A stretch of DNA of 64,000 bases from the NCBI GenBank assembly GCA_963815115.1, contig CAWFFN010000008.1, positions 736,001 to 800,000 of the forward strand, given 5' to 3'. Each line of letters opens with the position of its first letter. Positions within the stretch are counted from its first letter, which is position 1. The notes beneath the pieces are model-generated. The model made no database searches. It was not told the DNA's origin and saw nothing but the letters and a program-made list of their open reading frames with translations. Positions 9,767 to 60,817 of this stretch are shown here, in pieces. Origin of the DNA: an uncultured delta proteobacterium (GTDB lineage: Bacteria; Desulfobacterota; Binatia; DP-6). A program made the translations under genes and the position numbers.

Positions 9767-9890
9767 CCGGAACTCGCTCGGAGTGCGCGATTCGGTCGGA
9801 AGGAGCGATATCGTCAAGAGTGGTGGATCGCCTGAAGGACGGCTCCAGCCCGAGCTAGCGTCTTCGGCACCATCGGAGGCGAGGACAGCG

Positions 9891-9918
9891 TTGACAGAGC
9901 CGCCCCTGCCCCTACGCT
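9891..9918 (+). promoter_or_regulatory. sigma70 promoter of TA copy 1
   Basis: TTGACA-16 bp-TACGCT, conserved in all three TA copies. Confidence 0.6.
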
Positions 9919-9941
9919 ATGCAAGTAGGACTTTCGTACCC

Positions 9942-10243
9942 ATGGCAAGCGCTGCAACCAAGGTTGGGCCGAAGTTCCAGGTCACTATCCCGAAGAACGT
10001 TCGAGATGCGGTCGGCCTCAAGGTGGGCGACCTGGTCGAGCCTCCGTGGGACGTGACGGTATCGTCCTTCGCCAGAAAGTTCTCATCGACAAGCCAGTCA
10101 GCCTGACGCGGCAACTCGAGGAGTCAGAAGCGGCAGTGAAGGCGGGGAGGGTCCTCGGACCGTTCAGGTCGGCCGGCGCCGCAATGAAGGCCGTGAGGGC
10201 CCATGCGCGCCGTCCTGACCGAAACCGTTCGCCGCTGATCTGA
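9942..10243 (+). pseudogene. AbrB/MazE antitoxin, copy 1, frameshifted
   Basis: MASAATKVGPKFQVTIPK; 1-nt loss near 10040 relative to copies 2 and 3. Confidence 0.85.
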
Positions 10244-10448
10244 TCGCGAGTCCACCGGAGGTCCAGAAGGTCTTCGGCAAGCAGCTCGCCAACCTCCTCC
10301 GCGACCTGCGCCACCCCTTTCCTGCGAGCGAAGAAGTGCGAGGAGCGCACGGGCCGCTGGTAAGCCCGGATCAACGACGACTGGCGCATGTACTTCACCA
10401 TCGAGAGGGACGCCTATGTGCTGCGAGCGATCACCCCGCACCCCAACT
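10203..10448 (+). pseudogene. RelE-like toxin, copy 1, inactivated
   Basis: Homologous to 34417-34662 with an indel near 10222 and CAA>TAA near 10360. Confidence 0.8.
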
Positions 10449-10511
10449 TGCTCGCTCCCTCGCGCGCTCCGCGACGCTCGTCAAAGCGTCGCGGTCGCGC
10501 TCTCCCCCTTG

Positions 10512-10683
10512 GAATCAGTGGGTCACTGCCCTGCGTACGCATCGGTCAGTCTCCCATCCAGTCACCATGCCCATGCCTGCCCGTGCCTGCCGGTGGCTCA
10601 GCGCTGACGCCTAACCGTCGAATCTTCCAAGAAACGAGCACCCGCCGGAACCTCCCGGCAACCTCCTGCGTCCTTTCGTAATT
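10512..10683 (+). repeat. att-like repeat copy 1 (stops at TTCGTAAT core)
   Basis: Aligns with 34704-34873 and diverges immediately after the anticodon-loop core. Confidence 0.9.
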
Positions 10684-10774
10684 CGTTCCGACCCACTGAT
10701 GGAAAATCAGTGAGTCGGCGCGGTCTTCGTAACGCGAGCGAATCCGCTCACCGCAATGTACACAAGTTGCGGCC

Positions 10775-11065
10775 TTGAGTTTCCATCGCGTAGCATCAGC
10801 TGAAGTGAGGAGAGCGCGCGACAGCCATGATGGCACGGATGCATCGGACCATCCAGCGCACGCTGGCCGTTCACCCGCGCGCCTTCTCCGATGCCGAGAG
10901 GTCTGCGCACGCACGGGACTGTCTCGGACAACACTCTGGCGTCTGGAGTGTCGGGGGCAATTTCCTTCCAGCCGCCAACTCACCACGAACACGGTGGGGT
11001 GGCTGGAGGCCGAGGTTGAAGATTGGATCGCGACCCGTGTGTCCCGCCGTGAGCGCCACAAATGA
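10775..11065 (+). CDS. AlpA-family phage regulator / excisionase-like protein
   Basis: RLLRCREVCARTGLSRTTLWRLE.RGQFP...VGWLEAEVEDWI; start uncertain. Confidence 0.85.
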   Translation: MSFHRVASAEVRRARDSHDGTDASDHPAHAGRSPARLLRCREVCARTGLSRTTLWRLECRGQFPSSRQLTTNTVGWLEAEVEDWIATRVSRRERHK

Positions 11066-11169
11066 GGTGACGGTGATTCGTCCGATATCCTTTGCGGCGT
11101 GGCACCTCCCGTCACGGAGCGAAGCCTTCCGGCGGTGGCCGGTACCAGCGCCTTCACCTTCCCCACTCC

Positions 11170-11500
11170 TCACCCGAACAGACGATGCGGCCCGCGAAAC
11201 ACCTCCTTGCGGTGCCACGTCGCAAACTCCGCGCGGACCGGTGGCACGCCCGCTTGCGGCCCCACAAGGGGCGCACCGCTGACCCGAAGGAAGCGGGCCT
11301 CCCATTCCCCGCCGCCCCGGAAGCCGCGGGACACGAGCACTTTCTGACCGTCGAGATCGCGATCGCTCTGAGGTCGAACGCCTTGTGGTGCAACGAACAG
11401 AGGGAGAGACCGTTCGCGACCACGTCTGGGCCGCCGTGCGAGAACCACTTCACGTGCGCGGCCTCGATGCCGACGCTGATCTTCCCAAGCTGGACGTCGC
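11170..11500 (-). pseudogene. HNH restriction endonuclease, C-terminal fragment
   Basis: DVQLGKISVGIEAAHVKWFSHGGPDVVANGLSLCSLHHKAFD...FATWHRKEVFRG, frameshifted; 5' part replaced by a tRNA-Gly fragment. Confidence 0.8.
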
Positions 11501-11522
11501 CGGTTCGACCCTGGCCGCCGCT
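11482..11522 (+). repeat. tRNA-Gly(CCC) 3'-half fragment, att-like (left)
   Basis: TTCCCAA GCTGG ACGTC GCCGG TTCGACC; 29 bp identical to 32190-32218. Confidence 0.8.
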
Positions 11523-11584
11523 CTCTCGCAAGCTTGGATCCGCCCGGGGGGGTCGATCGCCGTGTGGCCCGGCTCCCGGAGCGG

Positions 11585-21422: not shown

Positions 21423-22310
21423 CTACGCGAGCGCCCGCGCCCACGTCTCCTCGCCGATGACGAGGAGGCCGACGCCGTTCGCTTCACGGGCGTGCTTCTC
21501 GGCGCCCCGGCCGCCCATGACGAGCCGCGTCCCGCGCGGCAGCTGCCGCGCCACCTCGCGCAGGACGCTCCGGAAGACGCGAGCTCCAGGATCCTGCACG
21601 CACGAGAGCGCGACGATGTCGGGCCGAAGCTCCCGCACGACGCGCGCCAGGTCCAGCTGCGGCGTGCGTGCGCCGACGTACGTCACCCGGAACCCGGCCT
21701 GGCGGAAGCGGAGCGCCGCACCCAGGAGCCCAATCTCGTGCGGCTCCTCCGGGAAGCACGCGCAGACGACATGTCGCCGCCCGCCGGCCGGCGCCGCGTG
21801 AAGGAGCTGGACGAGCCGCGAGCGGACGGCGTGGCTCACGAGATGCTCTTCCGCGACGCCGAGGCTTCCCGCGTGCCAGCGCTCTCCGATCTGGCGTTCG
21901 ACGCTCACCATCAGCCGCTCGTACACGACGAGCGGAGGCAGAGCGGCGAGCGCGTGGTCGAGCACCGCCTCTACCGTCCGCTGGTCGAGGCGTCTGGCCG
22001 CCGCGATGATGTCACGCTCGTACAGGCGGACCTGGTCGCCGTCCGCGCTGGCGAGCGCCGCCGACGTGCCCCGTCCGGCCGTCTCCTCGCCACCATCCGC
22101 GGCGAGCTGCACCGCCTCGCTGATCGGAACGCCGTCTTCCGTGAGCTCGCGGAGCCGGAGCAGGAGCCGGATGTCGTCCTCGGTGTACGCGCGGTAGCCG
22201 CCCGCGGTCCGCGGCGGCACTGGCACCCCGTAGCGGCGCTCCCAGGCGCGGATCACGTGCTCCGACAGCCCGGTGCGCGAGGCGGCCTCGCCGATGCGAT
22301 ACCGCCTCAT
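21423..22310 (-). CDS. carH: CarH/LitR-type MerR cobalamin photoreceptor regulator
   Basis: RAWERRYG, W-x9-EH (WHAGSLGVAEEH), E-x-H-x2-G (EPHEIG); last gene of the crt operon. Confidence 0.85.
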   Translation of the reverse strand: MRRYRIGEAASRTGLSEHVIRAWERRYGVPVPPRTAGGYRAYTEDDIRLLLRLRELTEDGVPISEAVQLAADGGEETAGRGTSAALASADGDQVRLYERDIIAAARRLDQRTVEAVLDHALAALPPLVVYERLMVSVERQIGERWHAGSLGVAEEHLVSHAVRSRLVQLLHAAPAGGRRHVVCACFPEEPHEIGLLGAALRFRQAGFRVTYVGARTPQLDLARVVRELRPDIVALSCVQDPGARVFRSVLREVARQLPRGTRLVMGGRGAEKHAREANGVGLLVIGEETWARALA

Positions 22311-22335
22311 GCCCCGGCCTGTGCCCGGGAGCGCA

Positions 22336-23609
<1,274 letters not shown>

Positions 23610-23613
<4 letters not shown>

Positions 23614-24503
23614 GCGGCGCGCTTCCACCGCCACACCGTGGCGGCCGCGAGGGCGAGCTTCCGGCGCCCGGGGACGACGGCGCGTCGGCGAAAGACGTCG
23701 TAGTCCCGCTCCGTGATGACGCGGAGGATGTCCCGGTAGAAGACGGCCATCAGCCCGACGGCGAGCCGCGCGCGGGCGCCGGCGAGGTGGGGGATGCCAG
23801 GGAGGGCGCGCGCGTAGCCGGCGCGGGCACGGGCGATCTGGGCCCGCATGAAGGCGCGGAAGCGGTCGTCGACGCGTCCCGCATGCAGGTCGCCCTCCTC
23901 GAGCCCGGCGGCGCGGAGCTCGTCGAGCGGCAGGTAGAGGCGGCCGCGCGCAAGATCCTCGCCGATGTCGCGCAGGATGTTGGTGAGCTGCATGGCCCGG
24001 CCGAGCTCGTCCGCGTAGCGGAGGGCGGCGGGATCGCCGTAGCCGAGCACGGGTGCGAGCATCAGCCCCACCGTGCCCGCGACCCGGTGGCAGTAGAGGT
24101 CGAGCTCGGCGAAGGACGCGTACCGGGTCTTGACGAGGTCCATCTCGACGCCGTCGACCAGCGTCAGGAGCGGCTCGACCGGGATGCGGTGGCGGGCGAT
24201 CGTGTCCCTGAGCGCCGCGAGCTCGTGCGGGTGCCAGGGCGCGGATGCGACCGGCGACGTCCGCCCTCCGCCGAGCGCGCGCACCACGCGGCGCATCCTG
24301 TCGAGCCGCAGCCCGACGGTCGAACGGTCGCTCCCCTCCGGCTCGTCCACGAGGTCGTCGAGACGGCGGCAGAAGGCGTAGAGCGCCATCGCCGATCGCC
24401 GGCGCTCCGCATCGAGGCAGAAGGCCGCGGCGAAGAAGCTCCGCGCGTGCGCGCGCGTGACGCCCCGGCAGCGGCGATGGCCATCACGCAGCGCCGCCGT
24501 CAT
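23610..24503 (-). CDS. crtB: phytoene synthase
   Basis: YAFCRRLDDLVD, YCHRVAGTVG, QLTNILRD. Confidence 0.93.
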
Positions 24504-26011
24504 GCCGCCTCGCCGCTCGTCACGGCATCCAGGTGGCGTACGATCCGTTCGGTCACGAGCCGCGCCGAGAGCATGACCATCGGGAGGCCCGTCCCCGGCT
24601 GCGTCGAGGCGCCGACGAAGAACAGGTTCGGGACGTTCGCGTCCTGGTTGCGCGGCCGGAACGGGCCGACCTGGAAGAAGTCGTGCGAGAGACCGAAGGC
24701 GGCGCCGCGCTCGAGGTTCAGCTCCGACTCCCAGTCGTCGGGGGTGAACTGCCGCTCGACCACGACGTGCTCGGCGACGTCCGGGCAGCCGATGTCCGCG
24801 AGCCGCGCGAGCACTTGTGCGCGCAGTCGCGGACCCTCGACCGCCCAGTCGAGCCCGGGGCGGCGATGGGGGACCGGGACGAGAACGTAGATGTTGTCAC
24901 CGCCGGGCGGCGCGCAGCCGGGATCGGTGCGCGCCGAGACGTTCACGTAGAAGCTCGGGTCCGCCGGCACCCGGAAGCGCTCGAAGATGTCATCGAACGC
25001 CCCGCGGTAGTCGCTCCCGAAGAGCACGTTGTGGTGGAGCAGCGCCGGGTAGCTCTTGCTCGTGCCGAGGTACAGCATGAACGCGCTCGACGTGTAGCGC
25101 AGCCGATCGGCGTGCCGGAGGGTCGTCTCCCGCGGGTCGATGAGATTCCGGTACGCCCACGGGAGGTCGGCGTTGCACAGGACCACCTCCGCCGGCACGA
25201 AGGTGCCGTCGGCGAGCTGGAGCCCGCGCGCCCGCCGATTCTCGATCGCGATCCTCGCGACCGGCGCGCCGTAGTGGACCCGGACGCCGAGCTCGACGGC
25301 GAGCCGGGCGAGCGCCAGCGGAAGGGCATGCAGCCCGCCGCGCGGATACCAGATGCCTCCGGCGAGCTCGGTGTAGGGCAAGAGTCCGTAGACGGCGGGA
25401 CTCCGGAACGGGGAGATGCCGAGGTACATCGTCTGGAAGGTCAGCGCGGCACGCAGGCGATCGTCGCGAAAGTAGCGCGCCACCTCGGGATACATCCGGC
25501 GATGCGCCCGGACCGCGAGGATGCCACGCAGGTTCGCGGGGGTGAGGAACTGCCCCAGATGGTCGAAGTTGCGGCCGACGAAGCGGTCGAGCGACGTCCG
25601 GTACTGCACGTGCCCGCGGGCGAGGAGCGCGAGGTAGCGCGGGAAGCTCCCCGGCTCGACGCGCTCGAGCTCGCGTGCCATGCGCTCCAGGTCGGACGTG
25701 AACGTGAGCGCCGAGCCGTCCCGGAAGTGGATGCGATAGTTGGGGTCGCACCGCTCGAGCGTCAGGTAGTCATCGAGACGGCGGCCGCCGGCGGCGAACG
25801 TCTCCTCGAGCACTTCCGGCATGAGGAGGAGCGTCGGTCCCGTGTCGAAGGTGAAGCCGCCGAGCTCGAGACGCCCACACCGTCCGCCGGGAGCGTCGCC
25901 GCGCTCGAACATCTCCACCGCGAAGCCCGCGTGCGCGAGCCGGACCGCGGCGGCCAGGCCACCCACCCCCGCTCCGATGACCGCGACCCGGCCTCTCGTC
26001 GTGCGCGTCAT
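24500..26011 (-). CDS. crtI: phytoene desaturase
   Basis: GAGVGG, FDTGPT, GASTQPGTGLP. Confidence 0.92.
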   Translation of the reverse strand: MTRTTRGRVAVIGAGVGGLAAAVRLAHAGFAVEMFERGDAPGGRCGRLELGGFTFDTGPTLLLMPEVLEETFAAGGRRLDDYLTLERCDPNYRIHFRDGSALTFTSDLERMARELERVEPGSFPRYLALLARGHVQYRTSLDRFVGRNFDHLGQFLTPANLRGILAVRAHRRMYPEVARYFRDDRLRAALTFQTMYLGISPFRSPAVYGLLPYTELAGGIWYPRGGLHALPLALARLAVELGVRVHYGAPVARIAIENRRARGLQLADGTFVPAEVVLCNADLPWAYRNLIDPRETTLRHADRLRYTSSAFMLYLGTSKSYPALLHHNVLFGSDYRGAFDDIFERFRVPADPSFYVNVSARTDPGCAPPGGDNIYVLVPVPHRRPGLDWAVEGPRLRAQVLARLADIGCPDVAEHVVVERQFTPDDWESELNLERGAAFGLSHDFFQVGPFRPRNQDANVPNLFFVGASTQPGTGLPMVMLSARLVTERIVRHLDAVTSGEAA

Positions 26012-26024
26012 GCCACATCTCCCT

Positions 26025-27080
26025 TCATCGGACGACGGTCTCCAGGATTTCCTCGAGCGCCGCCCGCATCCCGCCAGTGTCGGGCAGCATCCGCGTCCAG
26101 TGACGCGCCGTGCGCGTCGCCCCCGCGATCGCCTGCTCGGCGACGCGCCGGCCGCCGTGGTTCTCGACCAGGCCCCGCATCTCGGCGGTGGCCGCGGGCT
26201 CGGCGGCGGCCGCCTCCCACAGCGCCTCCAGCCGGTGCCGGACCGACGCGGGCGCCTGCGCGTATGCGGCGAGCACCGGCAGCGTCAGCTTGCGCGCCTC
26301 GAGGTCGCGGACCGGCTTCGCCGCGGCGGCGGAGTTCCCGAACAGGCCGGTCAGGTCGTCGCGCAGCTGGTAGGCGAGCCCCGCCGCGTGGCCGACGCGC
26401 TCGAGGGCGTCGACGAGGCGGGTCGCGCCGCCCCCGAGCCGGGCCCCGGCGACGAGCGGTGCGACGAAGCTGTAGCGCGACGTCTTGAGGGCGGCAATCC
26501 GGATGGCCTGCAACGGCCGGGCAGCAGCGAGTTCGGCGCCGGAGAGCTCGAGATCGAGATATTGACCCGCCGCCGTCTCGCGACAGACGCCCAGATAGTA
26601 CCGCACGACCGCGGGCGTCGCCGGGAGATTGCACCCCAGCATGAGATCGACGGCGAGCGCGAACAGGTGGTCGCCGACCACGATCGCGAGGTCCTCGCCC
26701 CTTCTCCCCCCGCCGAGGCAGCGGTGCAGCGCGGGCCCGCCGCGGCGCGTGTCGGCGCCGTCCGCGACGTCGTCGTGGACGAGCAGGAAGGTGTGCAGGA
26801 GCTCCACGCCGATCGCGAAGGACCAGAGCCCTTCCGGCACGGATCCCTTGCGGCGCGCGAGCCCGTGGCCGATCGCCAGCAAGGCGGGCCGCAGTCGCTT
26901 CGCGGGCCGGAGCGCGTAGTACCGCGTCTCCTTCAGCGCACGCCCCCAGCGTGCCTCGAGTGCGCGCTCCGCCGGCAGCTCGAGGACCCGCCCGAGTCTG
27001 CGCTCGAGGTCGGCCTGGAAGTCCGCGAGCCACGACGTGTGATCGAACCAATCCGACCTTGCCTGCTGGGCTGCGTTCAT
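26025..27080 (-). CDS. crtE: polyprenyl (GGPP) synthase
   Basis: KRLRP, HDDVAD..RRG, QLRDD. Confidence 0.88.
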   Translation of the reverse strand: MNAAQQARSDWFDHTSWLADFQADLERRLGRVLELPAERALEARWGRALKETRYYALRPAKRLRPALLAIGHGLARRKGSVPEGLWSFAIGVELLHTFLLVHDDVADGADTRRGGPALHRCLGGGRRGEDLAIVVGDHLFALAVDLMLGCNLPATPAVVRYYLGVCRETAAGQYLDLELSGAELAAARPLQAIRIAALKTSRYSFVAPLVAGARLGGGATRLVDALERVGHAAGLAYQLRDDLTGLFGNSAAAAKPVRDLEARKLTLPVLAAYAQAPASVRHRLEALWEAAAAEPAATAEMRGLVENHGGRRVAEQAIAGATRTARHWTRMLPDTGGMRAALEEILETVVR

Positions 27081-27088
27081 GAAGGCGT

Positions 27089-27128
27089 TGTCTAGTCTTG
27101 TGTCCAAGGCTTGTCAAGAGTATGTAGA
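27089..27128. promoter_or_regulatory. CarH-type operator over divergent promoter
   Basis: TGTnnA at 27089, 27101, 27112 and 27123 (TnnACA on the minus strand; 12/11/11 spacing), one copy being TTGACA. Confidence 0.75.
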
Positions 27129-27135
27129 GGCCATC

Positions 27136-27882
27136 ATGCCCCGACACGGCACCCTCGCGCTTCCAATCGCGATGACACTCGCCGTCGTCGCCGGGCGCGT
27201 CGAGGCCGTGTTGCCGCTCGCTGCCGGGACCTACCGGCTGGAGATGCGCTTCGGGAGCCACGCCGACCTGCCCTTCGTCGGCGCGGTGCGGTCGACCACC
27301 GTCTCGACGTCCCTCGTCGACATCCGCGCGCGAGACGGCGCGCTCGAGCAGACGCACCGGGTGTGCGACGCGCACCTCGAGGGCGCCGCGCCCGGCGTGC
27401 GGGTCGAGATGCCGTCGCGTTTCATCGCGGCGCTCGGCACGCACTCCTACCCGATCGCGGTGTCGTGGGACGGCGCCGGATGGCGCTACCATGCCGATCT
27501 CGGGATGGAGTACGTCGGCTGGCACCCCGACGACGACGCCCCGCTCCCCGGGAGCCCGGACGATCCCGGTGTCTACGACTGGGACGGCGACGGCCGGCCG
27601 GCCGCGACGCTCCGCCTGATCTTGCCGATCCTCCCCGCGGGTGAGCTCTACGTCGTGCAGCGCGCCCACTCCGTGCTCGACGGCCGCATGGTCGCGCTAG
27701 ACCGCGTCGAGGGACGGATCGACCTCCCGCTCTTCGAGCAGGCCGTCATCGGAGCACGCCCCGGATTCCTGCGCCGCTCGCCCCGGGCGACGCAGGACCC
27801 CGAACGCAGCCGGTTCGTACTCGAACGCGTTGCGACGGGAACAGCGTGTCCCGACCTCGTGGAAGCACGGAGCGGCCGGTGA
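27136..27882 (+). CDS. secreted hypothetical protein in carotenoid cluster
   Basis: Signal-like N-terminus, DWDGDGRP motif; GTGA overlap with the next gene. Confidence 0.7.
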   Translation: MPRHGTLALPIAMTLAVVAGRVEAVLPLAAGTYRLEMRFGSHADLPFVGAVRSTTVSTSLVDIRARDGALEQTHRVCDAHLEGAAPGVRVEMPSRFIAALGTHSYPIAVSWDGAGWRYHADLGMEYVGWHPDDDAPLPGSPDDPGVYDWDGDGRPAATLRLILPILPAGELYVVQRAHSVLDGRMVALDRVEGRIDLPLFEQAVIGARPGFLRRSPRATQDPERSRFVLERVATGTACPDLVEARSGR

Positions 27883-29042
27883 CGATCATTGCCGGCATCG
27901 TCCTCTTGCTGCAGGCCGTCCTCGCCGTGCGTGTCCTCGCCCGCCTCGTGCGGACGGCGGGCGGCGACCGCATCCACGCGGACGATCGGCTGCGCGACGC
28001 GCGGGTCGCGATCGTTGTCCCCGTGCTCGACGAGCGCGAGCGGATCGGCGCCTGTCTCGCGGCGCTCGCGGCGCAATCCGACGAGGTGCGGGAGATCCTC
28101 GTGGTGGACGGCGGGTCGCAGGACGGCACCCAGGCGGTCACCGCGGCACACGCCGCCGCCGATCCTCGCATCCGGCTCGTCGACGCCAGTCCGGTGCCGC
28201 CGGACGCGACCGGCAAGGCGTGGGGCCTGAGCGTCGGCCTCCGCCGGACGTCGCCCGGGACGGAGTGGATCCTCTGCGTCGACGCCGACGTGCGTGCCGC
28301 CCCGGGGCTCACCCGCGCGCTCATCGCGCACGCGGAGCGTACCGGCGTTCCCGCCTTCTCGGTGGCGACGCGGCAGCGGCTGTCCGGCGCGGGCGAGGCG
28401 CTGATCCACCCGAGCCTCCTCGCGACACTCGTCTATCGCTTCGGCAGCCCCGGCCACGCCACCGCCGATCCGTCCGCGGTGCAGGCGAACGGCCAGTGCT
28501 TCCTCGCGCGCCGCGACCTGCTGCTCGCGACCGGCGCCGTCGAGGCGGCACGCACGTCGCTCTGTGAGGACGTGACCATCGCGCGTGCGCTCGCGGCGGG
28601 CGGCCATCGCGTGGGCTTCTACGAGGCGGACGGCCTCGCCACCGTCGGCATGTACCGGAGCGGGCGAGAGGCGTGGCGGAACTGGCCGCGTTCCCTTCCC
28701 ATGCGCGACGGGTTCTTCGGATGGCGCGAGGCGCTCGGGCTCCTCGAGGTCGTGTTCGTGCAGGCGCTGCCGGGGCCCCTGCTCGTCCTCACGGCGGCCC
28801 TCGGCGGGTCACGTGCGGCGATCGGGCTCGAGGTCATGCTCGTCGCCTGCCGCCTCGGCGTGCTCGCCGGCATGGCGCGGGCCTACGTCGACCGCCCGCT
28901 CGCCTATTGGCTGTCGCCGCTGACCGACGTGCCGGTGGCGGTTCGCCTGATGACGAGCGCGCTGCGGCGCCGGCACCGGTGGCGAGGATGGTCATATGTG
29001 CGGCGCCCCCGCGGCTGGGTGCGTGTCGAGGAGGGATCGTGA
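27879..29042 (+). CDS. GT2 carotenoid glycosyltransferase (CruC/CruG-like)
   Basis: VVDGGSQDGT, TGKAW, DAD, NGQC, EDV; gene context. Confidence 0.85.
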   Translation: MTIIAGIVLLLQAVLAVRVLARLVRTAGGDRIHADDRLRDARVAIVVPVLDERERIGACLAALAAQSDEVREILVVDGGSQDGTQAVTAAHAAADPRIRLVDASPVPPDATGKAWGLSVGLRRTSPGTEWILCVDADVRAAPGLTRALIAHAERTGVPAFSVATRQRLSGAGEALIHPSLLATLVYRFGSPGHATADPSAVQANGQCFLARRDLLLATGAVEAARTSLCEDVTIARALAAGGHRVGFYEADGLATVGMYRSGREAWRNWPRSLPMRDGFFGWREALGLLEVVFVQALPGPLLVLTAALGGSRAAIGLEVMLVACRLGVLAGMARAYVDRPLAYWLSPLTDVPVAVRLMTSALRRRHRWRGWSYVRRPRGWVRVEEGS

Positions 29043-34101: not shown

Positions 34102-34152
34102 TTGACAGAGCGCCCGCCGTCGCCCTACACTAGGCAAGTAGGACTTTCGTAC
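34102..34152 (+). promoter_or_regulatory. sigma70 promoter and operator of TA copy 2
   Basis: TTGACA-18 bp-TACACT followed by GTAGGACTTTCGTAC. Confidence 0.6.
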
Positions 34153-34154: not shown

Positions 34155-34451
34155 GTGGCGAGCGCTGCAACCAAGGTCGGCCCGAAGTTCCAGGTCACCA
34201 TCCCGAAGAACGTCCGGGACGCGGTCGGCCTCAAGGTGGGCGATTTGGTCGAGGCCTCCGTCGGGCGCGAGGGCATCGTCCTCCGCCAGAAGGTTCTCAT
34301 CGACAAGCCAGTGAGTCTGGCAAGGCAACTCGAGGAATCGGACGCGGCGGTGAAGGCCGGACGGGTCCTCGGACCATTCAAATCGGCCGGCGCCGCAATG
34401 AAGGCCGTGAAAGCCCATGCGCGCCGTGCTGACCGAACCGTTCGCCGCTAA
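34155..34451 (+). CDS. AbrB/MazE-family antitoxin, copy 2
   Basis: KVGPKFQVTIPKNVRDAVGLKVGD. Confidence 0.9.
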   Translation: MASAATKVGPKFQVTIPKNVRDAVGLKVGDLVEASVGREGIVLRQKVLIDKPVSLARQLEESDAAVKAGRVLGPFKSAGAAMKAVKAHARRADRTVRR

Positions 34452-34662
34452 CCTGATCGCGAGCCCGCCCGAGGTCCAGAAGGCCTTCGGCAAGCAGCTC
34501 ACGAATCTCCTCCGCGACCTGCGCCACCCTTCCCTGCGAGCGAAGAAGTACGAGGAACGCACGGGCCTCTGGCAAGCCCGGATCAACGACGACTGGCGAA
34601 TGTACTTCACCATCGAGGGCGACGTCTACGTGCTGCGAGCGATCACGCCTCACCCGAAGTAG
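34417..34662 (+). CDS. RelE-superfamily toxin, copy 2
   Basis: HPSLRAKK...WQARINDDWRMYF. Confidence 0.85.
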   Translation: MRAVLTEPFAANLIASPPEVQKAFGKQLTNLLRDLRHPSLRAKKYEERTGLWQARINDDWRMYFTIEGDVYVLRAITPHPK

Positions 34663-34703: not shown

Positions 34704-34907
34704 GAATCAGTAGGTCAATGTCCTCGACTGAGCATCGGTCAGTCTCCATCCAGTCACCATGCCCATGCCTCCCGGTGCCTGCCGATGGATGAGCGCGACG
34801 CGTAACCTCCGAATCTTCCGAGATACGGCCACCCGCCGGAACCTCCCGGCAACCTCCTGCGTCCTTTCGTAATCAGTAGGTCGCCGGTTCGACTCCGGCG
34901 GGTGGCT
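34704..34907 (+). repeat. att-like repeat copy 2 ending in tRNA-Thr(CGT) 3' half (34866-34907)
   Basis: TTCGTAA TCAGT AGGTC GCCGG TTCGACT CCGGC GGGTGGC T; arm-like CAGTCTCCAT-C-CAGTCACCAT. Confidence 0.92.
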
Positions 34908-41049: not shown

Positions 41050-41129
41050 GGTAGGTTTCCCACCTCGCCCAAGAGTCGCGGCGCCTTCCCGGGTCGGGTG
41101 TCGCCCTGTCGGCAGATGACGCACGTCAT
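41050..41129 (-). pseudogene. YgiT-type zinc finger / MqsA-like antitoxin remnant
   Basis: MTCVICRQGDTRPGKA, then frame lost. Confidence 0.5.
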
Positions 41130-42520: not shown

Positions 42521-42559
42521 AGGAGGACGAGACATCCCGCCCGCCTTGCCCCGTACTCT

Positions 42560-42800
42560 CCAGATAACGCGTGACCCCAACTTCGAGAACGGATCGTGCA
42601 CCAACGCGATCGCGTCGTGCGCCGACATCGCAACCTGCCTCGCTGCGTCGGCGAGTCCGCGGTGGACCAGGCGATCACGCTCTCCTACGCGATGGTCGAA
42701 CCAGGATCAGTTCGGCATGAAATCGACTCTGAACAAGTGCCAGGGCGCGATCGGCAAGGAGACGACGAAGTTTCTGCAGCGAGCGATCTCGACCATGAGG
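42560..42800 (+). pseudogene. fragment of Cys-rich secreted-type protein
   Basis: PNFENGSCTNAIASCADIATCL / LNKCQGAIGKETTKF, broken by frameshifts. Confidence 0.45.
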
Positions 42801-42993
42801 CCGCGGCGTTGCCGACCCTCGGCCTCCGCGCGTCGGTGCTGTAGCACCACGGTCACGCGAACTGCGGCAAGAAGAGACGCGAACGTGGAGCGCGTGGGTG
42901 GACCTGCCCCGCGAGGGTTGACGAACGCCTCGGAGGCGGACGTTCGCTGGGATCCCTACCTCCGGATCGAGTTCCTCTCCGAGCTGTGCGGCG

Positions 42994-43167
42994 TCACGCG
43001 GCGATGTTGAGGGAGGCCGTGGCCAAGGCCTTCTCGCGGAGTTGGATCGCCGGGCTCATGACGGTGTAGCCGAGCTCACTGCGGCATCCACCGCACGTCG
43101 GCGGCTCGTACGGGTTGGCCGTGAGGCGCGCGCCGCACATGGGGCATGGCCGCATCGTCGTCGTCAT
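42994..43167 (-). CDS. 57-aa zinc-ribbon microprotein
   Basis: MTTTMRPCPMCGARLTANPYEPPTCGGCRSELG...; two CxxC motifs, below the ORF-track cutoff. Confidence 0.5.
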   Translation of the reverse strand: MTTTMRPCPMCGARLTANPYEPPTCGGCRSELGYTVMSPAIQLREKALATASLNIAA

Positions 43168-44118
43168 GGCACGTCTCCGAAATCGGTCTCGGCGCCGTCG
43201 AAGTCGTCGCCGGGCCGTCCTTCCGCTGTCCTCAGTGACTCCCCTCGCTGCTCGACACCCTCGATTACACAGACGATACGAAGGTTGGTGTCGTGGCGCG
43301 GTCTGATTGCGGCGTTCTTATCCATGCGATTTTGCAACTCGTTCCGCCTACCCAAGGCGCGACGATCTACGCTCCAGCGGCCTGCGGCCGTTCGCCGCAT
43401 CGACGGTGCGTGCTGAGGAAGAGCGAACGGCGTGCCAACGAGCTATCGCAACTGAATGCCCACCGTTAGGTGATCAGGGCCTGGCTTGCCTGCGGGCCAA
43501 ACGTAGCTGGGAGCGACGAGATCGTGAGCGTAGGGCGCACGTGGATTCGACGCCCGCCGAGGAGATGAGCGGCTCGGGTGCCGGCGTGGTCCCTCCTGCC
43601 TGCCCCAAAATCAGCTAACGGATCGGGTACCCTAGGGACGCCCAGGCCCGTACGGTGTGAATCGTGGCGGCCGGCGTACAGGTTGCGCGGAGCCAATTGA
43701 AGAAACTTCAGCCGACCGGGCGCCCGTTCCCGGCCGGGAAACACGCTCTGCCGCAATACCGTCACCCTGGGGCGAAGGCTACGCGAACGCGCGCGGGACG
43801 GAGGCGGTCCGCAGTCGAGCCTGATGCGACGGTTCTACCTTGGGGTGGCCGTGACTCGCCATGACTGGAGAAACCTATCGCGCCGGGTTGGTTGAGCAGG
43901 CGGGTCACAGCGAAAGACGGCCCACGGCGCTGCGGCTCCGAATTCGCGTCTCGGCTCGCCAGCCCCCCCGCCCGCTTCGCGGCAACGCTATGACGATTCT
44001 GCTGTTCGCAGCGTCGTGCGTTGTCATCGACTAGGAGGAGTCGCGAGGTGTCCCGCGGCGCCCGCACCGGCGACACCGGACGGAGCCGTAACAGCTCAAC
44101 GCGCCACGGGATTTCAAA

Positions 44119-44323
44119 AGCCACCCGCCGGAGTCGAACCGGCGACCTACTAATTACGAAAGGACGCAGGAGGTTGCCGGCAGGTTCCGGCGGGTGCTCG
44201 TCTCTCGGAAGATTCAGGGGTTACGCGTTGGCGCTGACCCACCAGGAGGCACCGGCAGGCATGGGCATGGTGACTGGATGGAGACTGACCGATGCCTTGG
44301 TGAGGACAGTGACCTATTGATTC
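44119..44323 (-). repeat. att-like repeat copy 4 (inverted) with tRNA-Thr(CGT) 3' half
   Basis: Reverse complement aligns along its full length with 34704-34907. Confidence 0.9.
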
Positions 44324-44444: not shown

Positions 44445-44729
44445 TCAGGCCGCGCGCCGGACCCGGATGTAGGCTTCCAGCCCTGCGGCTTCTACGAGCC
44501 GCAGCACGCGATCGATCGTGACCTTCTGCAGGCTCCCTGAGAGAATGCCCGTGACGGCGCTTCGGGAAAGGCCGGAGTGCGCGGCCAGCTCAGCATGCGT
44601 GAGGCCTCGTCGATCGACCTCTCGCAGGACAGCCGCGATGAGCTGTGCCTTGAGCACTGCCTCGAGACCGCGGCTCTTCGGGATGCCGAGGAGCTTTGCC
44701 AGGCGGTCGGCGGACGTCTTCTTGCTCAT
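44445..44729 (-). CDS. XRE HTH antitoxin (HigA-like)
   Basis: GLTHAELAAHSGLSRSAVTGI...TIDR. Confidence 0.85.
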   Translation of the reverse strand: MSKKTSADRLAKLLGIPKSRGLEAVLKAQLIAAVLREVDRRGLTHAELAAHSGLSRSAVTGILSGSLQKVTIDRVLRLVEAAGLEAYIRVRRAA

Positions 44730-45043
44730 TGCGTCAGCTCCTTCAGACGCTTTCGCGCCAGATCGATGTGGCGTCCAGGGGTTGTCTGCGTGGTCTTCTT
44801 GAAGGTGTGTAGGACATGTACCGCTCCACGACGAATGAGCGCGTAGATCACCCGGTAGTGACCGGAACGATCGCGAAGCCGTAGCTCATGGACGGCCCGG
44901 CCAATGCTGGGCATGGCACGTGACAGCGGCATGGCGAGCATGAGGCCAGCGTCGAGGCGGGCGAGCGCATCTGCGAGATCGCTACGCACATCCATCGGGA
45001 ATGCATCAAGCTCTCGGCGACAAGCCGGGACGATGATGATCAC
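44726..45043 (-). CDS. RelE/HigB (Gp49-like) toxin
   Basis: HELRLRDRSGHYRVIY...LHTFKKTTQTTP. Confidence 0.88.
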   Translation of the reverse strand: MIIIVPACRRELDAFPMDVRSDLADALARLDAGLMLAMPLSRAMPSIGRAVHELRLRDRSGHYRVIYALIRRGAVHVLHTFKKTTQTTPGRHIDLARKRLKELTQ

Positions 45044-45165
45044 ATGCTAGGGTCTCATAAATGAGACGTGAGGTCCAGTCTGCGGGTGGTCGCGCGCGAG
45101 TGGGAGGCCGGACCTTCCCAGGGGACCGGCGCGTGTCAATGAGATGAGAGAGGGGCATGGTGAAA

Positions 45166-46308
45166 TTACTGTCCCGCCGCGACGTCGAGCTCCGCGAGCA
45201 GGAGGTCGTCCGCAGCCACGAGCATCGAGACTGGGGGGGTACCTGGACCTTGGACCGGCTCCGTTGCGGGCGTCTGCGGGGCTCTGAGCGCGACGTTTCT
45301 TCGCGATCGCGGGCTCGGAACGCCATTGCGGTCGAGGGCCGGCGGATTGATCCACACTTCCGTCGGGGGCTGTTGCACCCGCGGTGTCTTCCCCTTGAAG
45401 CGTTCGGGATGAGCCGCGAATGCCGCCGCGAGCGTTTCCCCCCGTCGTGCCACGATCGCCAGGGCCGTCCCGCTGTGCACGCTCACCGGCGTCAGGAACC
45501 CGATCCCGCTGTGCCGATGCTCTTCGTTGTACCAGGGGAAGAATCGCCGCAGGAATCCCAGGGCGTCCTGCTGCGACCCGAATCGCTCGGGAAACTCCGG
45601 ACGCGACTTCAACGTGCGAAACTGCGACTCCGAAAACGGATTGTCGTTGCTGGTGTACGGTCGCGTCAGGCTCCGCGTGATCGACAGGTCGGCCAACAGC
45701 TGGCCCACCGTCTTCGACGTCATCGCCGGCCCGCGGTCGGAGTGCAGCGTCAGGACCGCCTCCGCGATCCCCTCCTTCTCGCAGCTCTCCTTGATCAAGC
45801 GGCGCGCCAACGTCGCCGACTCTCGATCCGCCAAGAGCCACCCCACCACGTAGCGGCTGAAGATGTCGAGCAGCACGTAGAGGTAGAAGTACGTCCACTT
45901 CGCCGGCCCCTTGAGCTTCGTGATGTCCCACGACCACACCTGGTTCGGTCCCGTCGCCAGGAGCTCGGGCCGCGTCGCCACCGGGTGGCGCAGCTGGTTG
46001 CGCCGCTCGCGGACTTCCCCGTGCCGATCGAGAATCCGGTACATCGTCCGCAGCGAGCAGTGGTAGGTTCCCTCCTCGAGCAACGTCGCGTACACCTCCG
46101 CCGGAGCCTGGTCGATGAACCGTTCCGAATGCAGCACGTCGAGAACGGCAGCCTCCTCGACCTCGGACAATGCCAGCGGCGGCCGCGATCGAACCGCCGT
46201 CTCCGAACATGGTCGCCGCCACCGGTAAAAACTTGCCGGGGCCACGCCCAACGCCCCACAGGCGGCCTGGACCCCCACGGCGTCGGCCAACGTCTGCGCC
46301 GTCGCCAT
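45166..46308 (-). CDS. IS3 transposase OrfB
   Basis: WSWDITKL...DIFSRY...HSDRG...NDNPFSESQF. Confidence 0.92.
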   Translation of the reverse strand: MATAQTLADAVGVQAACGALGVAPASFYRWRRPCSETAVRSRPPLALSEVEEAAVLDVLHSERFIDQAPAEVYATLLEEGTYHCSLRTMYRILDRHGEVRERRNQLRHPVATRPELLATGPNQVWSWDITKLKGPAKWTYFYLYVLLDIFSRYVVGWLLADRESATLARRLIKESCEKEGIAEAVLTLHSDRGPAMTSKTVGQLLADLSITRSLTRPYTSNDNPFSESQFRTLKSRPEFPERFGSQQDALGFLRRFFPWYNEEHRHSGIGFLTPVSVHSGTALAIVARRGETLAAAFAAHPERFKGKTPRVQQPPTEVWINPPALDRNGVPSPRSRRNVALRAPQTPATEPVQGPGTPPVSMLVAADDLLLAELDVAAGQ

Positions 46309-46787
46309 CAGCTCCCGACCTCCTCGTCGCTCGGCGGCAGCCCCAGCAACTGTGAGACTTTTTTTTGAACGTCGATGATCACGTGCGCCTTGCGCAGCTC
46401 CTCCCGCAGCCGCGCGTTCTCCCGCTCCATCCCGGCGAGTCGCTTCGCCAACGGATGCGCCACCGCCTTGCGCCCGCGCGCGTGCCCCGCCAGCCCGACC
46501 AACGCCCCCGCCTCGCGCTGCTGACGCCACACGCTCAGATGCGACGTGTAGAGCCCCTCGCGTCGCAGCAGCGCCCCGATCTCCCCCGGCTCGCGACACC
46601 CGTCGGCCTCGGCCAGGAGCTGTCGCTTGTACTCGGCCGTGAACCGGCGCCGCTGCGCCTTCGCCGGAACCTCCGGATTCTTGCGGCCCGTCGGCGCCGG
46701 CGCGCCCGCAACTTCAGTCGCCCTACGGGCTCCTTCCGTTCCGGGCGCGCTTCCTGATCCCCCGCCATCCCTCACCTTCACTCCCAC
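46308..46787 (-). CDS. IS3 transposase OrfA
   Basis: RRRFTAEYK...LLRREGLY...DVQKKVS. Confidence 0.88.
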   Translation of the reverse strand: MGVKVRDGGGSGSAPGTEGARRATEVAGAPAPTGRKNPEVPAKAQRRRFTAEYKRQLLAEADGCREPGEIGALLRREGLYTSHLSVWRQQREAGALVGLAGHARGRKAVAHPLAKRLAGMERENARLREELRKAHVIIDVQKKVSQLLGLPPSDEEVGS

Positions 46788-46857
46788 CTCGCTCGCCTTC
46801 CTCCGTCCCCTCGTACACTAAATTCGGATCGCCTCCTCTCTCACGTTCATTGGCACA

Positions 46858-47973
46858 GGGGGGCTGTCGTATCAGGTTCCCGAGTCGCCACAGGCCTTTC
46901 GCGCCGTCGTTCATGAAGCTCGCGCCTGCATTCGCGACGATGAAGTGCATGCATCCCGCCCGCGCGATCGGCGCCACCTGTTCGCAGATCTCCCGCGGAC
47001 TGCCGGCATAGATGACCGTCTCGATGATGGCCGCCGTCATCGTCGCGGCTGCCTGGTCCACGTGCTCCCGGCCCACCCACGTCGGTACCAGATCCGGGAA
47101 CCCACCGTGCGATGCCCCCAGCGGATGGCTCCGCCCATGCGCTCGCCACACGCTCGCCGGCGCCCCCAGCGCCATCGCCGCGCACACGAGGCTCCGGAGC
47201 GCCCGTTCGAGCACCTGCTCCCGGCTCTCCCCGAGCGCGACCAGCATCGTGTGCGTCGCCGTGAAGCGCTCGAGGCTCCGTCCCGCCTCCTCGGCGGCGC
47301 GGCGGATCACTCCGAGCCGCTTTGCGTACTCCTCACCCGATACGCGCTGCCCCGGCAGCCAGCCATCGCCGAAGCGGCCCGCGAGACGCAGCATGCGCGG
47401 ATAGTGCGCGGCGACGAAGAGCCGCGGCGGCTTCCGGCCATACAACGGCAGGCCGAACACGGCGTCGCGCAGCGTCCAGAACCGCCCCGAGTAACTGACT
47501 GGCCGCCCGCCGCTCGCCCACAGCAGCCGAATGATCGTCAGCGCCTCCTCGAGCCGCTCGACGTTCTGCCCGTACGGCAGCCCGTACGGCTCGGTGTTCT
47601 CCCGGATGCCGTTGCCGATGCCGAGGATCGCGCGCCCCCGGGAGATGTGGTCGAGCGTCACGAACGACTGTGCAAGCGACATCGGGTGCCGGCGGATGCT
47701 CTCCGTGACCGACGTGCCGACGTCGACGCGCCGAATCCGCTTCGCGGTGAGCGCCAGCACCTGGAGCGGATCGAAGAGAGCGTCGATCGACGGCACGATC
47801 CGCGCCGCGGCCGTGATGCCCGGCCGCCAGACCTCCGGGGGCGTGAAGCTCATGAAGTGGTCGGGTACCCAGATCGCGGACGCGCCCATCAGCCGTGCCA
47901 GGCGCATATTGATCCGCGAGACCCAGAGTGGGTACACGCAGGCGTCTTGGTAGCCGACCGTCACGCGCGCCAT
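46858..47973 (-). CDS. LLM-class (likely F420) oxidoreductase, 3' end interrupted by IS
   Basis: WVPDH, TLDHISRGRAILGIG, AGRFGDGW; ORF reads into the IS terminus. Confidence 0.85.
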
Positions 47974-58589: not shown

Positions 58590-59030
58590 GCCACGGGAGA
58601 CCTGCGCCATCCGACACAACCGCGTCACCGGATACCGACCTTTCTCCGCCTCGACGAACCGGTAGCGGCTCATCGGGTTTCCATCGCGAAGAAAGCCGCC
58701 CGCTTCAGGATGTCTCGCTCCTCGTGCAGCACCTGCACCTCCCGCCGCAACCGCCGCAGCTCCTCGCGCTCTTCGATCGTCAACCCGTCGCGCTCGCCCG
58801 CGTCCACGGCCGCCTGCCCGACCCAGCGCCGCACCGCCGTCTCACTCAGGTCCAGCTCACGACAGATCGCTGGCAGCGATCGCTCGCCCCGGCGCACCAC
58901 GGCGATGACCTCGGCCTTGAACTCCGGCGTGAACGACCGCCGCTGCCGCCGGCGTGCCCCGTTCCCTTCCGCCTTCTTCCCCATTCGGACTCCCTCCACG
59001 TGGGCTCACGCCCACATCCGGGATGTCCAC
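58590..59030 (-). mobile_element. truncated relative of the 1190-2480 IS3 (orfA and start of orfB)
   Basis: OrfA ending AFFAMETR; MSRYRFVEAE; shared leader GTGGGCTCACGCCCACATC. Confidence 0.88.
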
Positions 59031-59144
59031 GCGTTCGTATCGATGAAGGCGCACGGGCTGTCCTCCGCGCCACTGCGGTACGGTCCGCAGCACACCACGG
59101 GGTCATCCGCGAGGAGCCCCAATCGACGACGGGAGGACAGCTCG

Positions 59145-59440
59145 ATGGAACGCTACTACGTGGGTCTCGACGTGCATAGCCGCGAGAGTGTGTTCGTCAT
59201 CAAGAGGCATGACGGGGAGCTCGTCGACCGCGGCGCGCTCCCCACGACCGCGCTGGGTCTCGCGCGCCTCCGCGACGAGCACGGCTTGCCCCCAGGGACG
59301 CCCATCGCCCTCGAGACCGGCACGTCCGCCTTCTTCGTGGCGAGCTCGCCCGCCTCGACCTCACGCCGGTCGTGATCGATGCACACGAGGTCCGCCGCAA
59401 GGCCCACCGCCCGCTCCAGAAGAGTGACCGCCGCGACGCA
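59145..59440 (+). pseudogene. IS110 transposase N-terminal (DEDD) fragment
   Basis: MERYYVGLDVH...ALETG...KSDRRDA, frameshifted; GGAGG RBS. Confidence 0.8.
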
Positions 59441-59682
59441 CTCGAGGAGTCGCTGGCGCTCATTCACGAGATTCGTCCCCGAGGAGTTCGATGCGGACGA
59501 ACCGATCATCAAGCCATGACTTCGGGGGGGCCACCCAGCTTCAGCTGCTTGGCAACGGGTCCTTCATCGCGTCGGTCGCGCTCGATGCACAGGCAGCGCG
59601 TCGCGACGTACACTGGCTACATCCGGTCCCTCGGCATCGGAGTACCGACTGATTCAACGGTAGCGCCGCGGACGACGGTTTC

Positions 59683-59829
59683 TGCTACCGCGCTGCTACC
59701 ACTCCCACCCAACCCAGGACGCACGAGGCGAAAGTGTGGTCACTCGTGATCGTCGGTTTTCCGTGGGGATAGGTCTCCCTGGTGCTGCGAAGTTTCGCCT
59801 CTATCCGAGTTCGTAATCAGTCGGTCGCC
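59683..59829 (+). other. second type of tRNA-Thr att-like junction
   Basis: TGCTACC direct repeats, then TTCGTAATCAGTCGGTCGCC about 110 bp downstream. Confidence 0.55.
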
Positions 59830-60011
59830 CTCCGAGGCGAACCTCGTTCGTCGTCCCATGATTCCATCCAACTCGACGTCTGCAGCCTCGCGAAACTCGG
59901 GGCGGTTCAATCCTCGATGAGAAGGCGTTGGAGGAAGGGATGAAGAGAAATGGAAGCGGACCGCGTTCTGCGAACCCGCGGGCGCCTTGGGCACACCGGA
60001 GGAGAGGAGCG

Positions 60012-60061
60012 TTGACAGAACGACCCAGCCTTCCTACACTACGAAAGTAGGACTTTCCTAC
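60012..60061 (+). promoter_or_regulatory. sigma70 promoter and palindromic operator of TA copy 3
   Basis: TTGACA-17 bp-TACACT; GTAGGA-CTT-TCCTAC. Confidence 0.7.
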
Positions 60062-60063
60062 CC

Positions 60064-60360
60064 ATGGCAACCGCTGCAACCAAGGTCGGACCGAAGTTCC
60101 AGGTCACCATCCCGAAGAACGTCCGGGATGCCGTCGGGCTGAAGGTGGGCGACCTGGTCGAGGCCTCCGTGGGGCGCGAGGGCATCGTCCTCCGCCAGAA
60201 GGTTCTCATCGACAAGCCAGTGAGCCTGGCAAGGCAGCTCGAGGAATCGGAAGCGGCGGTGAAGGCGGGGCGGGTCCTCGGACCGTTCAAGTCGGCCGGT
60301 ACCGCAATGAGGGCCGTGAAAGCCCATGCGCGCCGTGCTGACCGAACCGTTCGCCGCTAA
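60064..60360 (+). CDS. AbrB/MazE-family antitoxin, copy 3
   Basis: Near-identical to 34155-34451. Confidence 0.9.
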   Translation: MATAATKVGPKFQVTIPKNVRDAVGLKVGDLVEASVGREGIVLRQKVLIDKPVSLARQLEESEAAVKAGRVLGPFKSAGTAMRAVKAHARRADRTVRR

Positions 60361-60571
60361 CCTGATCGCGAGCCCGCCGGAGGTCCAGAAGGCTTTCGGC
60401 AAGCAGCTCACGAATCTCCTCCGCGACCTGCGCCACCCTTCCCTGCGAGCGAAGAAGTACGAGGAACGCACGGGCCTCTGGCAAGCCCGGATCAACGACG
60501 ACTGGCGGATGTACTTCACCATCGAGGGCGACGTCTACGTGCTGCGAGCGATCACGCCTCACCCGAAGTAG
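60326..60571 (+). CDS. RelE-superfamily toxin, copy 3
   Basis: Protein identical to 34417-34662. Confidence 0.85.
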   Translation: MRAVLTEPFAANLIASPPEVQKAFGKQLTNLLRDLRHPSLRAKKYEERTGLWQARINDDWRMYFTIEGDVYVLRAITPHPK

Positions 60572-60612
60572 CTCGCTCGTGCAGGGTGCGACGGCCACAC
60601 TCTCGAGCGGCG

Positions 60613-60817
60613 GAATCAGTAGGTCAGTGTCCTCGACTGAGCATCGGTCAGTCTCCATCCAGTCACCATGCCCATGCCTCCCGGTGCCTGCCGATGGATG
60701 AGCGCGACGCGTAACCTCCGAATCTTCCGAGACACGGCCACCCGCCGGAACCTCCCGGCAACCTCCTGCGTCCTTTCGTAATTAGTAGCTCGCCGGTTCG
60801 ACTCCGGCGGGTGGCTC
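60613..60817 (+). repeat. att-like repeat copy 3 with tRNA-Thr(CGT) 3' half
   Basis: Near-identical to 34704-34907. Confidence 0.92.

Follow-up and report, generated by a model that had tools for sequence, protein, structure and literature searches.

The window considered here is a stretch of 64,000 nucleotides (nt) from the genome of an uncultured delta proteobacterium (Binatia, DP-6), positions 736,001 to 800,000 of contig CAWFFN010000008.1. The genome, labelled G000 in the comparisons below, amounts to 6.89 Mb in 12 contigs, and the window corresponds to C8:736001-800000; positions without a prefix are those of the window. At four places the window carries a repeated non-coding unit that lies downstream of a toxin-antitoxin (TA) operon and that, in three of the copies, ends in the 3' half of a tRNA-Thr(CGT) gene. 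An original prediction had placed these type-1 units where they are now found, at 10512-10683(+), 34704-34907(+), 44116-44323(-) and 60613-60817(+), with only the start of the third, 44116, being adjusted; they align over ~205 nt. All four are real, but they are part of a larger set that comes to six type-1 and two type-2 junctions, the latter built on an unrelated arm described below. The window contains no complete tRNA (0 by ARAGORN) and no intact integrase (0 matches to PF00589), as had also been proposed.

Structurally, the unit is made up of an arm of ~165 bp followed by a segment, here called O, that is a copy of nt 32-74 of tRNA-Thr(CGT). O begins with TTCGTAA at the anticodon loop's first base and extends as far as the discriminator base. 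In copy 2, P-arm-like non-coding DNA at 34704..34865(+) leads into an O at 34866..34907(+) that has no difference from the live gene. The O of copy 4 (60613..60817, +) has 2 mismatches and that of copy 3 (44116..44323, -) has 1, the latter unit being inverted with respect to the rest of the array. The arm of copy 1 (10512..10683, +) stops at TTCGTAAT and has no tRNA 3' half after it, in keeping with the expectation that only three window copies would carry one. The arm starts with GAATCAGTAGGTCA, a distal box and near-copy of the core half-site AATCAGTAGGTCG. Its interior contains the invariant CATCGGTCAGTC...CCAGTC, then two tandem GTGCCTSCCG repeats, then GAATCTTCC, and the arm of copy 2 also carries the inverted repeat CACCCGCCGG. 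An 11-bp stretch of the arm, CACCCGCCGGA, repeats in inverted, complementary form the TCCGGCGGGTG that O has in its T-arm/acceptor part, and the two halves of this inverted repeat are located ~24 nt and ~23 nt either side of TTCGTAA. Because they flank that motif near-equally, the arm side appears to mimic the acceptor-stem symmetry of a real tRNA gene. We know of no earlier description either of an inverted T-arm/acceptor copy that is symmetric about the crossover or of a distal near-copy of the core half-site.

In copy 1, TTCGTAAT at the end of the arm is followed by a flank with a hairpin and by an AlpA-like gene (10874-11047). Metagenome contig L035 carries the same alternative junction over 226 nt, and it is therefore inherited and not a private deletion. 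Within this flank (10684-11047), the hairpin CACTGA-TGGAAAA-TCAGTG has the stem of the tRNA-Thr anticodon arm and a different loop, and a second TTCGTAA follows it.

A BLASTN search of the whole genome with copy 2 (207 nt) gives six near-full matches with E from 3e-52 to 2e-104, all of them on contig C8 and none on the other contigs. These are copy 2 itself (u770, C8:770704, +; 100%), copy 4 (u796, C8:796613, +; 98.0%), u708 (C8:707952, +; 91.7%), u733 (C8:733763, +; 91.3%), copy 3 (u780, C8:780323, -; 88.9%), and copy 1 (u746, C8:746512, +; 87.2%, arm alone without the tRNA part). The genome-wide count that the original prediction had proposed adds u708 and u733, both upstream of the window. 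The copies differ by 2-13%, a divergence that argues against chance matches and contradicts the assembly duplication that had been considered beforehand.

The intact tRNA-Thr(CGT) gene, which was expected to lie outside the window, is placed by ARAGORN at C8:696366-696439(+), 40 kb upstream of it, and is the sole copy in the genome. Up to 113 kb downstream of this gene are seven displaced copies of O, six co-oriented and one inverted, and in every one of them the identity to the tRNA begins at nt 32. Six type-1 arms are found downstream of the tRNA, five with an O, and all but one have the same orientation. Including the type-2 sites, C8:696366-809460 contains eight junctions in 113 kb, and the blocks between junctions measure ~11.7, 25.8, 12.7, 24.2, 9.2, 15.5, 1.0, and 12.6 kb. 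GC content across the region is mosaic, at 64-75%. The three copies of O nearest the tRNA match the live gene, the first without its last bases (truncated at C8:708154). Farther out, in order, are a copy with 1 mismatch, a badly decayed type-2 copy (795.8k), a copy with 2 mismatches, and a last copy with 1 mismatch and 1 deletion. This rise of decay with distance broadly fits a sequence of events in which new elements would enter at the tRNA and older ones would be pushed outward.

The second type of junction was recognized at C8:809418-809458, where an O is preceded by an unrelated arm of ~200 bp that contains CTGCTACC twice. A junction of this type also lies in the window at 59616..59845(+), again with CTGCTACC twice and with a decayed O that has a 7-nt deletion and mismatches. 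It is absent from the original prediction and is located just ahead of copy 4, ~165 bp before the promoter of that copy. The arm is homologous to C8:809230-809460, to the genome of another member of the genus (G001), to metagenome contigs L045 and L047, and to G061, a metagenome-assembled genome (MAG) labelled Actinomycetota. Type-2 arms with an O lie at L015:7410-7660 and L022:8432-8648(-). Since one and the same 3' piece of tRNA-Thr follows the type-1 arms and the unrelated type-2 arms, a single crossover site serves two element families. The notion that the type-2 arm and the alternative flank of copy 1 are two ends of one element is unsupported, the type-2 island of G061 beginning after a full O.

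The TA operons are co-oriented with the arm and lie upstream of it at 41 nt in copies 2 and 4, ~67 nt in copy 1, and 121 nt in copy 3. A TA operon at 40-120 bp had been proposed for every window copy, and this spacing holds, but the operon of copy 1 is a pseudogene. At 9942..10444(+), its AbrB-like gene is frameshifted and its RelE-like gene is split and has an in-frame stop, with remnants recovered as tblastn pieces at C8:745942-746171 and 746222-746444. In copy 2, the conserved module has its left edge at a sigma-70-like promoter at 34102..34131(+) (TTGACA, 18 nt, TACACT; 1 site against 0.1 expected), and homology begins there. This is followed by a gene for a 98-aa AbrB/MazE-type antitoxin at 34155..34451(+) (PF04014, E 3.1e-11; TIGR01439, E 2.4e-11) and, with a 35-nt overlap, by a gene for an 81-aa putative toxin at 34417..34662(+). 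The resemblance of the 81-aa protein to the RelE/ParE superfamily is weak, with ParE_like at E 0.013, below the cut-off, and the YoeB/HigB structures of the PDB at E 0.2-0.5, and to call it RelE is a reasonable guess, not a result. The operon of copy 4 (60064..60571, +) is intact and its toxin is 100% identical to that of copy 2. Copy 3 instead has, at 44445..45043(-), a HigB-like toxin (Gp49, 105 aa; PF05973, E 3.3e-19) and a HigA-like antitoxin (HTH, 94 aa; PF13744, E 1.1e-12), and the HigBA layout is confirmed by the toxin gene being upstream of the antitoxin gene with an ATGA start/stop overlap. Of the three AbrB-RelE pairs and one HigBA-like pair originally named, the AbrB antitoxin and the HigBA domains are borne out, but the RelE identity is seen only below threshold. 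Upstream of the window, u733 is accompanied by an AbrB-type gene remnant beside an oppositely oriented DUF3368 gene, and u708 has no recognizable TA operon upstream. No AbrB/RelE-like pair was found elsewhere in the genome.

The occurrence of different TA types beside one conserved site had been read as an exchange, and metagenome contigs point instead to differential loss. The 3' end of HigA is directly ahead of the AbrB promoter in 9 of the 17 upstream regions compared, and nine contigs (L026, L027, L028, L032, L033, L038, L049, L053, and L055) carry both pairs in tandem before the arm. From this tandem form it follows that the common end module is HigB-HigA-AbrB-RelE-like-arm-O, of which the AbrB/RelE and HigBA versions in the window are deletion variants. 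TA pairs in integrons and in integrative and conjugative elements (ICEs) act in addiction, and by analogy the pairs found here probably penalize loss of the block that carries them.

The array itself is free of recognizable integrase genes. PF00589 has 0 matches in it and 18 in the genome, the last on C8 at 392432-392857, and an integrase domain is found in 0 of the 115 open reading frames (ORFs) scanned in C8:690001-816000, three border-crossing ORFs being left out of the scan. A broken P4-like integrase is present at C8:815313-815803, ~6 kb past the last junction. Residues 25-102 and 200-283 align to the enzyme of G010, and a 94-aa ORF with an Arm-DNA-bind_3 domain is part of it. Its surroundings (C8:814619-815883) comprise a RelE-like gene fragment (814619-814795), a 177-aa ORF, and TGTTACCT repeated before the start of the integrase. 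The persistence of this decayed integrase and of the AlpA-like gene within or next to the array shows that elements with integrases were once present.

In G002, of the same genus, an intact P4-like integrase (397 aligned aa, 61% to that of G010) is located a few kb after tRNA-Thr; the content there is different and shorter, and no displaced O was detected in that genome. A third arm type adjoins the P4-like integrases of G010 and G018. No integrase gene was found next to the tRNA in the present genome, and one is found there in G006 for a diverged arm: a 10-kb stretch of G006 leads from the tRNA through a tyrosine recombinase gene (456 aa, convergent) and genes for an HTH_17 protein and large unknown proteins to a diverged type-1 arm with O. 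BLAST matches this arm at both ends and the arm profile recovers it at E 2e-28, though the arm was in the training set. In metagenome contig L044, the genes directly after a type-1 arm and O are those of an integrase (422 aa), an HTH_17 protein, and an AAA_25 protein. The closest relatives of the G006 and L044 integrases in the present genome have 32% and 43% identity, respectively, and the latter (G000:C7:925047-926198) ends inside tRNA-Arg(TCG). The L044 integrase ORF (L044:1169-2434(-)) runs through O and ~150 nt into the neighbouring arm. In this integrase lineage, gene and tRNA target overlap at the 3' end of the gene. Phage Mx8, with its intP/attP overlap, resembles this arrangement.

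Beyond this genome, 8 of the 24 other family genomes contain displaced tRNA-Thr fragments whose start is at nt 31/32. The type-1 arm itself is rare. BLAST finds it in 0 of 60 relatives, none of the four same-genus genomes has it, and a profile search of 151 genomes of the class recovers G000, G006, and one weak match (E 6e-4). An exact 27-mer of the arm retrieves one record from a species-level genome collection, namely G061, in which promoter, TA operon, arm, and O are 87.5% identical and a type-2 junction follows 3.9 kb farther along a 12.7-kb contig; no integrase was found on that contig. A scan with the 81-aa protein returned 40 soil metagenome loci, and the arm follows the gene in 15 of them; these loci were collected through the toxin, with several cut by contig ends, and the fraction is no measure of TA enrichment. 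Loci with TA DNA below ~80% identity showed no arm (in L029, none in 765 bp downstream). A plasmid collection gave no match to the unit, only phage tRNA-Thr genes in a phage collection match its tRNA part, and IMG/VR has 0 exact matches to the 27-mer. Parts of 33000-37000 are detectable in 20 public metagenome runs, the best with 0.41 of the sampled words, but contigs from four runs were short, with a pile-up on the tRNA part from tRNAs of other organisms and no usable joint at O, and have no bearing on excision or habitat.

Comparison of flanks between these records bears on how O is used. The type-2 junction of G061 and the type-1 junction of L027 share one right flank (94.7% over 131 nt), which is thus found with differing left sides. 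A PRiA4 block is 90% identical between G000 and G061, and its right-hand neighbours differ. As judged from the alignments, O behaves as a breakpoint at which left and right sides reassort between records.

Taken together, the units probably represent attR sites or internal attP-like junctions in a tandem array of remnants of integrative elements that target tRNA-Thr(CGU). The original idea that they are island ends formed by crossover in a tRNA anticodon loop finds support in the intact tRNA and its seven nt 32-74 copies, in the family genomes with displaced fragments, and in the G006 element. Under this reading, elements encoding tyrosine integrases would have entered the single tRNA-Thr(CGU) gene in series, at its anticodon loop. 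Two parts would make up each junction: the P-side arm of the element, presumably with predicted binding sites for the integrase and accessory proteins, and the 42-44-nt tRNA 3' segment that each incoming element would bring to rebuild the gene. Each new insertion would push older elements off the tRNA, which would produce the order tRNA, block, arm and O, block, arm and O over 113 kb. The TA operons would be the terminal gene module of the element family, ancestrally HigBA plus the AbrB/RelE-like pair plus the arm, and most likely serve as addiction modules. The integrase ends of all blocks would have been deleted here, leaving remnants that may be movable only by a matching incoming integrase.

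Several observations weigh against serial integration of this kind. As no integrase adjoins any junction, it has to assume that integrase ends were lost on at least six separate occasions. Decay of O is not strictly ordered, the worst copy (the type-2 O at 795.8k) not being the last in the array, and the inverted copy 3 is not a product of simple serial integration. The alternative right junction of copy 1 is left unaccounted for. No conserved P' arm was found after O, with right flanks matching in only 3 pairs among 27 junctions. The sole element that combines an integrase in cis with a type-1-like arm, that of G006, has a much diverged arm and no recognizable TA operon. Finally, very short blocks, such as the 1.0 kb before copy 4 and the 0.23 kb in L032, are as compatible with minimal cassettes as with remnants of deletion.

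It is conceivable, if unlikely, as a stronger form of what the original prediction proposed, that the blocks never had integrases and are TA-capped non-autonomous cassettes, similar to cis-mobilizable elements (CIMEs), that are captured, excised, and shuffled at the tRNA in trans on an integron-like platform. Such cassettes would suit the absence of an integrase from any of the seven blocks and the existence of short O-bounded blocks (1.0 kb in the window, 2.4 kb in L045/L047, 1.8 kb in L062, 3.9 kb in G061, and 0.23 kb in L032), as well as the reassortment of the left and right sides of O and the internal junctions, which have the layout of P, O, and next element needed for excision of a single block. 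However, the genome lacks a cognate integrase, its nearest candidates being the 32% and 43% relatives described above, the latter at tRNA-Arg, and the decayed integrase and AlpA-like gene remain in or beside the array. Decay is also widespread, affecting the copy-1 pseudogenes, the O copies at C8:708154 and 59810-59845, and the partial TA genes in L031, L032, and L045. We are correspondingly doubtful that the tRNA-Thr(CGU) locus is a working gene-capture platform at which integrase-less blocks of TA and arm are inserted, excised, and reshuffled by the integrases of transient elements. If it were, the locus would be a functional analogue of an integron made from tRNA-targeting tyrosine recombinases, and the tRNA-mimicking symmetry of the arm would let a foreign integrase assemble at the site without the tRNA 5' half.

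Origin of the copies by segmental duplication and homologous recombination of one TA-plus-unit segment, in place of site-specific integration, is very unlikely. Copies 2 and 4 are 94% identical over 828 nt including the promoter, repeats of 830 bp are good substrates for homologous recombination, and one copy is inverted, all of which such an origin would explain. Yet the remaining copies are only 84-92% alike, in five copies the homology stops precisely where the tRNA-derived segment ends, and it begins at the promoter in those that retain the AbrB/RelE-like operon. In addition, this tRNA segment is also carried by the unrelated second arm, the array is headed by the intact tRNA, and the same type of junction occurs in other genomes with other cargo. 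It is scarcely credible that the unit is a structured non-coding RNA, be it a tRNA-like 3' untranslated region belonging to the TA operon or a tRNA in split or permuted form. The unit is indeed co-oriented with the operon at 41-121 nt with no terminator-like site found between them, it ends in the T-arm and the acceptor 3' strand, and CACCCGCCGGA can pair with TCCGGCGGGTG. Against this, a scan of the window at Rfam gathering thresholds gave 0 matches and ARAGORN found 0 genes, and RNAalifold on 13 units returned a covariation term of +0.9, with the 11 pairs of the long helix never covarying and broken in some sequences. Moreover, copy 1 and L035 have no 3' half, and the arm occurs without a TA operon at C8:707952 and in G006. 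Nor is the arm coding DNA on either strand, as its 52 variable columns are spread 15/17/20 across codon phases and 1-nt indels separate the copy groups. Long ORFs do cross it, including one with HNH at C8:733766-734335 and that of the L044 integrase with its tail.

The blocks that these junctions separate carry accessory metabolic genes of an ordinary kind and insertion sequences (ISs), the cargo including a carotenoid cluster, short-chain dehydrogenases, a molybdopterin oxidoreductase, a penicillin amidase, F420-linked enzymes, and a TOTE conflict system. The carotenoid cluster (21426-29875) is made up of an amine-oxidase-type desaturase, a polyprenyl synthase, and Caroten_synth, beside a MerR regulator with B12-binding domains, and its region has a GC content of 72-75% against 65-68% around it. 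Copies 2 and 3 form facing inverted repeats (34866-44160) around a 9.2-kb segment that holds the TOTE conflict system, whose AEP-TOTE helicase protein is encoded at 38515-40971(-), beside a protein of 814 aa at 35963-38404(-); from this arrangement, the segment could be invertible. The IS at 45127..46863(-), which carries the 477-aa rve transposase gene (PF00665) beside HigBA, lies outside the module, and the view that this gene is the recombinase of the module can be set aside, since it belongs to an ordinary IS with 4 genome copies at 99.7-100%. An IS3-like element at 1187-2480 has genome copies at 100%, and by their identity both ISs look recently active. Among the other tRNA genes, ARAGORN calls a tRNA-Pyl and several tRNAs of unusual length (90-99 nt; Asp, Ile, Ala, Arg, Ser, Gly, and others), which may have introns, be miscalled, or be pseudo-tRNAs related to islands.

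If the units are junctions of serially inserted elements, a 113-kb variable region would be explained by the stacking of seven or more foreign blocks, whose cargo includes carotenoid genes, redox enzymes, the TOTE system, and the penicillin amidase, and exact block boundaries become available for strain comparisons. The end module of TA and arm is shared among uncultured soil bacteria and could be exploited as a marker for the island family, and the arm offers studies of site recognition by tRNA-targeting integrases a well-defined candidate substrate. The architecture is of a known kind, represented by tandem accretion, CIMEs, ssrA islands, and tycheposon islands, and its general interest is accordingly modest.

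Anticodon-loop crossover is said to be part of the sublocation scheme that Williams drew up in 2002 for tRNA-targeting integrases, and actinomycete elements such as pSE101 integrate at tRNA-Thr. As in other islands of tRNA-targeting tyrosine integrases, the identity block here runs from the anticodon loop to the tRNA 3' end, with the tRNA rebuilt at attL and the fragment displaced at attR. Unlike those islands, there is no integrase in cis, and the arm has an inverted T-arm/acceptor copy and a distal near-copy of the core. Chromosomal integron cassette arrays are stabilized by TA cassettes, and they resemble the present array in having exchangeable blocks that each end in a recombination site, with TA pairs interspersed. 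In contrast to integron arrays, the array has no IntI, attI, or attC-type hairpin, and its blocks are 1-26 kb with their own promoters. We do not regard it as an integron cassette array, given that it contains no tyrosine recombinase and that its arm has no supported fold.

A closer parallel is found in the tandem accretion and CIMEs that Pavlovic et al. reportedly described in 2004 at the attachment sites of ICEs and of elements that are both integrative and mobilizable (IMEs), in ICESt1 and ICESt3 of Streptococcus thermophilus. Both cases involve att-bounded segments without an integrase that are stacked at one site with attP-type internal junctions, and CIME remnants are reportedly movable only through the integrase of a neighbouring or an incoming element. 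Here, however, the target lies in the anticodon loop of a tRNA, the blocks number seven, with two or three families of arm, and the genome has no autonomous partner, the related element with the same arm being seen only as the diverged one in G006. In the tycheposon islands of Prochlorococcus, partial tRNAs alone separate stacked elements and integrases are fragmented (bioRxiv 10.1101/2020.12.28.424599). New arrivals in those islands push older elements inward, as they would have done here, and extra partial tRNAs are scattered through the islands (bioRxiv 10.1101/2020.12.28.424599). The present array differs in phylum and element family and in having no intact element, and TA end modules are not a stated hallmark of tycheposons.

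The Dehalococcoides islands are likewise arranged in tandem, within 100 kb downstream of ssrA, and 15 of them, which have no integration module, have been put forward as CIMEs (PMC3146451). Each of those islands ends in a direct repeat of the 3' end of that small-RNA gene together with extra conserved upstream bases (PMC3146451), which is comparable to O and its arm. The Dehalococcoides system uses a tmRNA target, a 20-bp repeat, and a serine recombinase (PMC3146451), whereas the array described here has a 42-44-nt tRNA repeat, a conserved arm of ~165 bp, related tyrosine recombinases, and an island end that is capped by a TA module.

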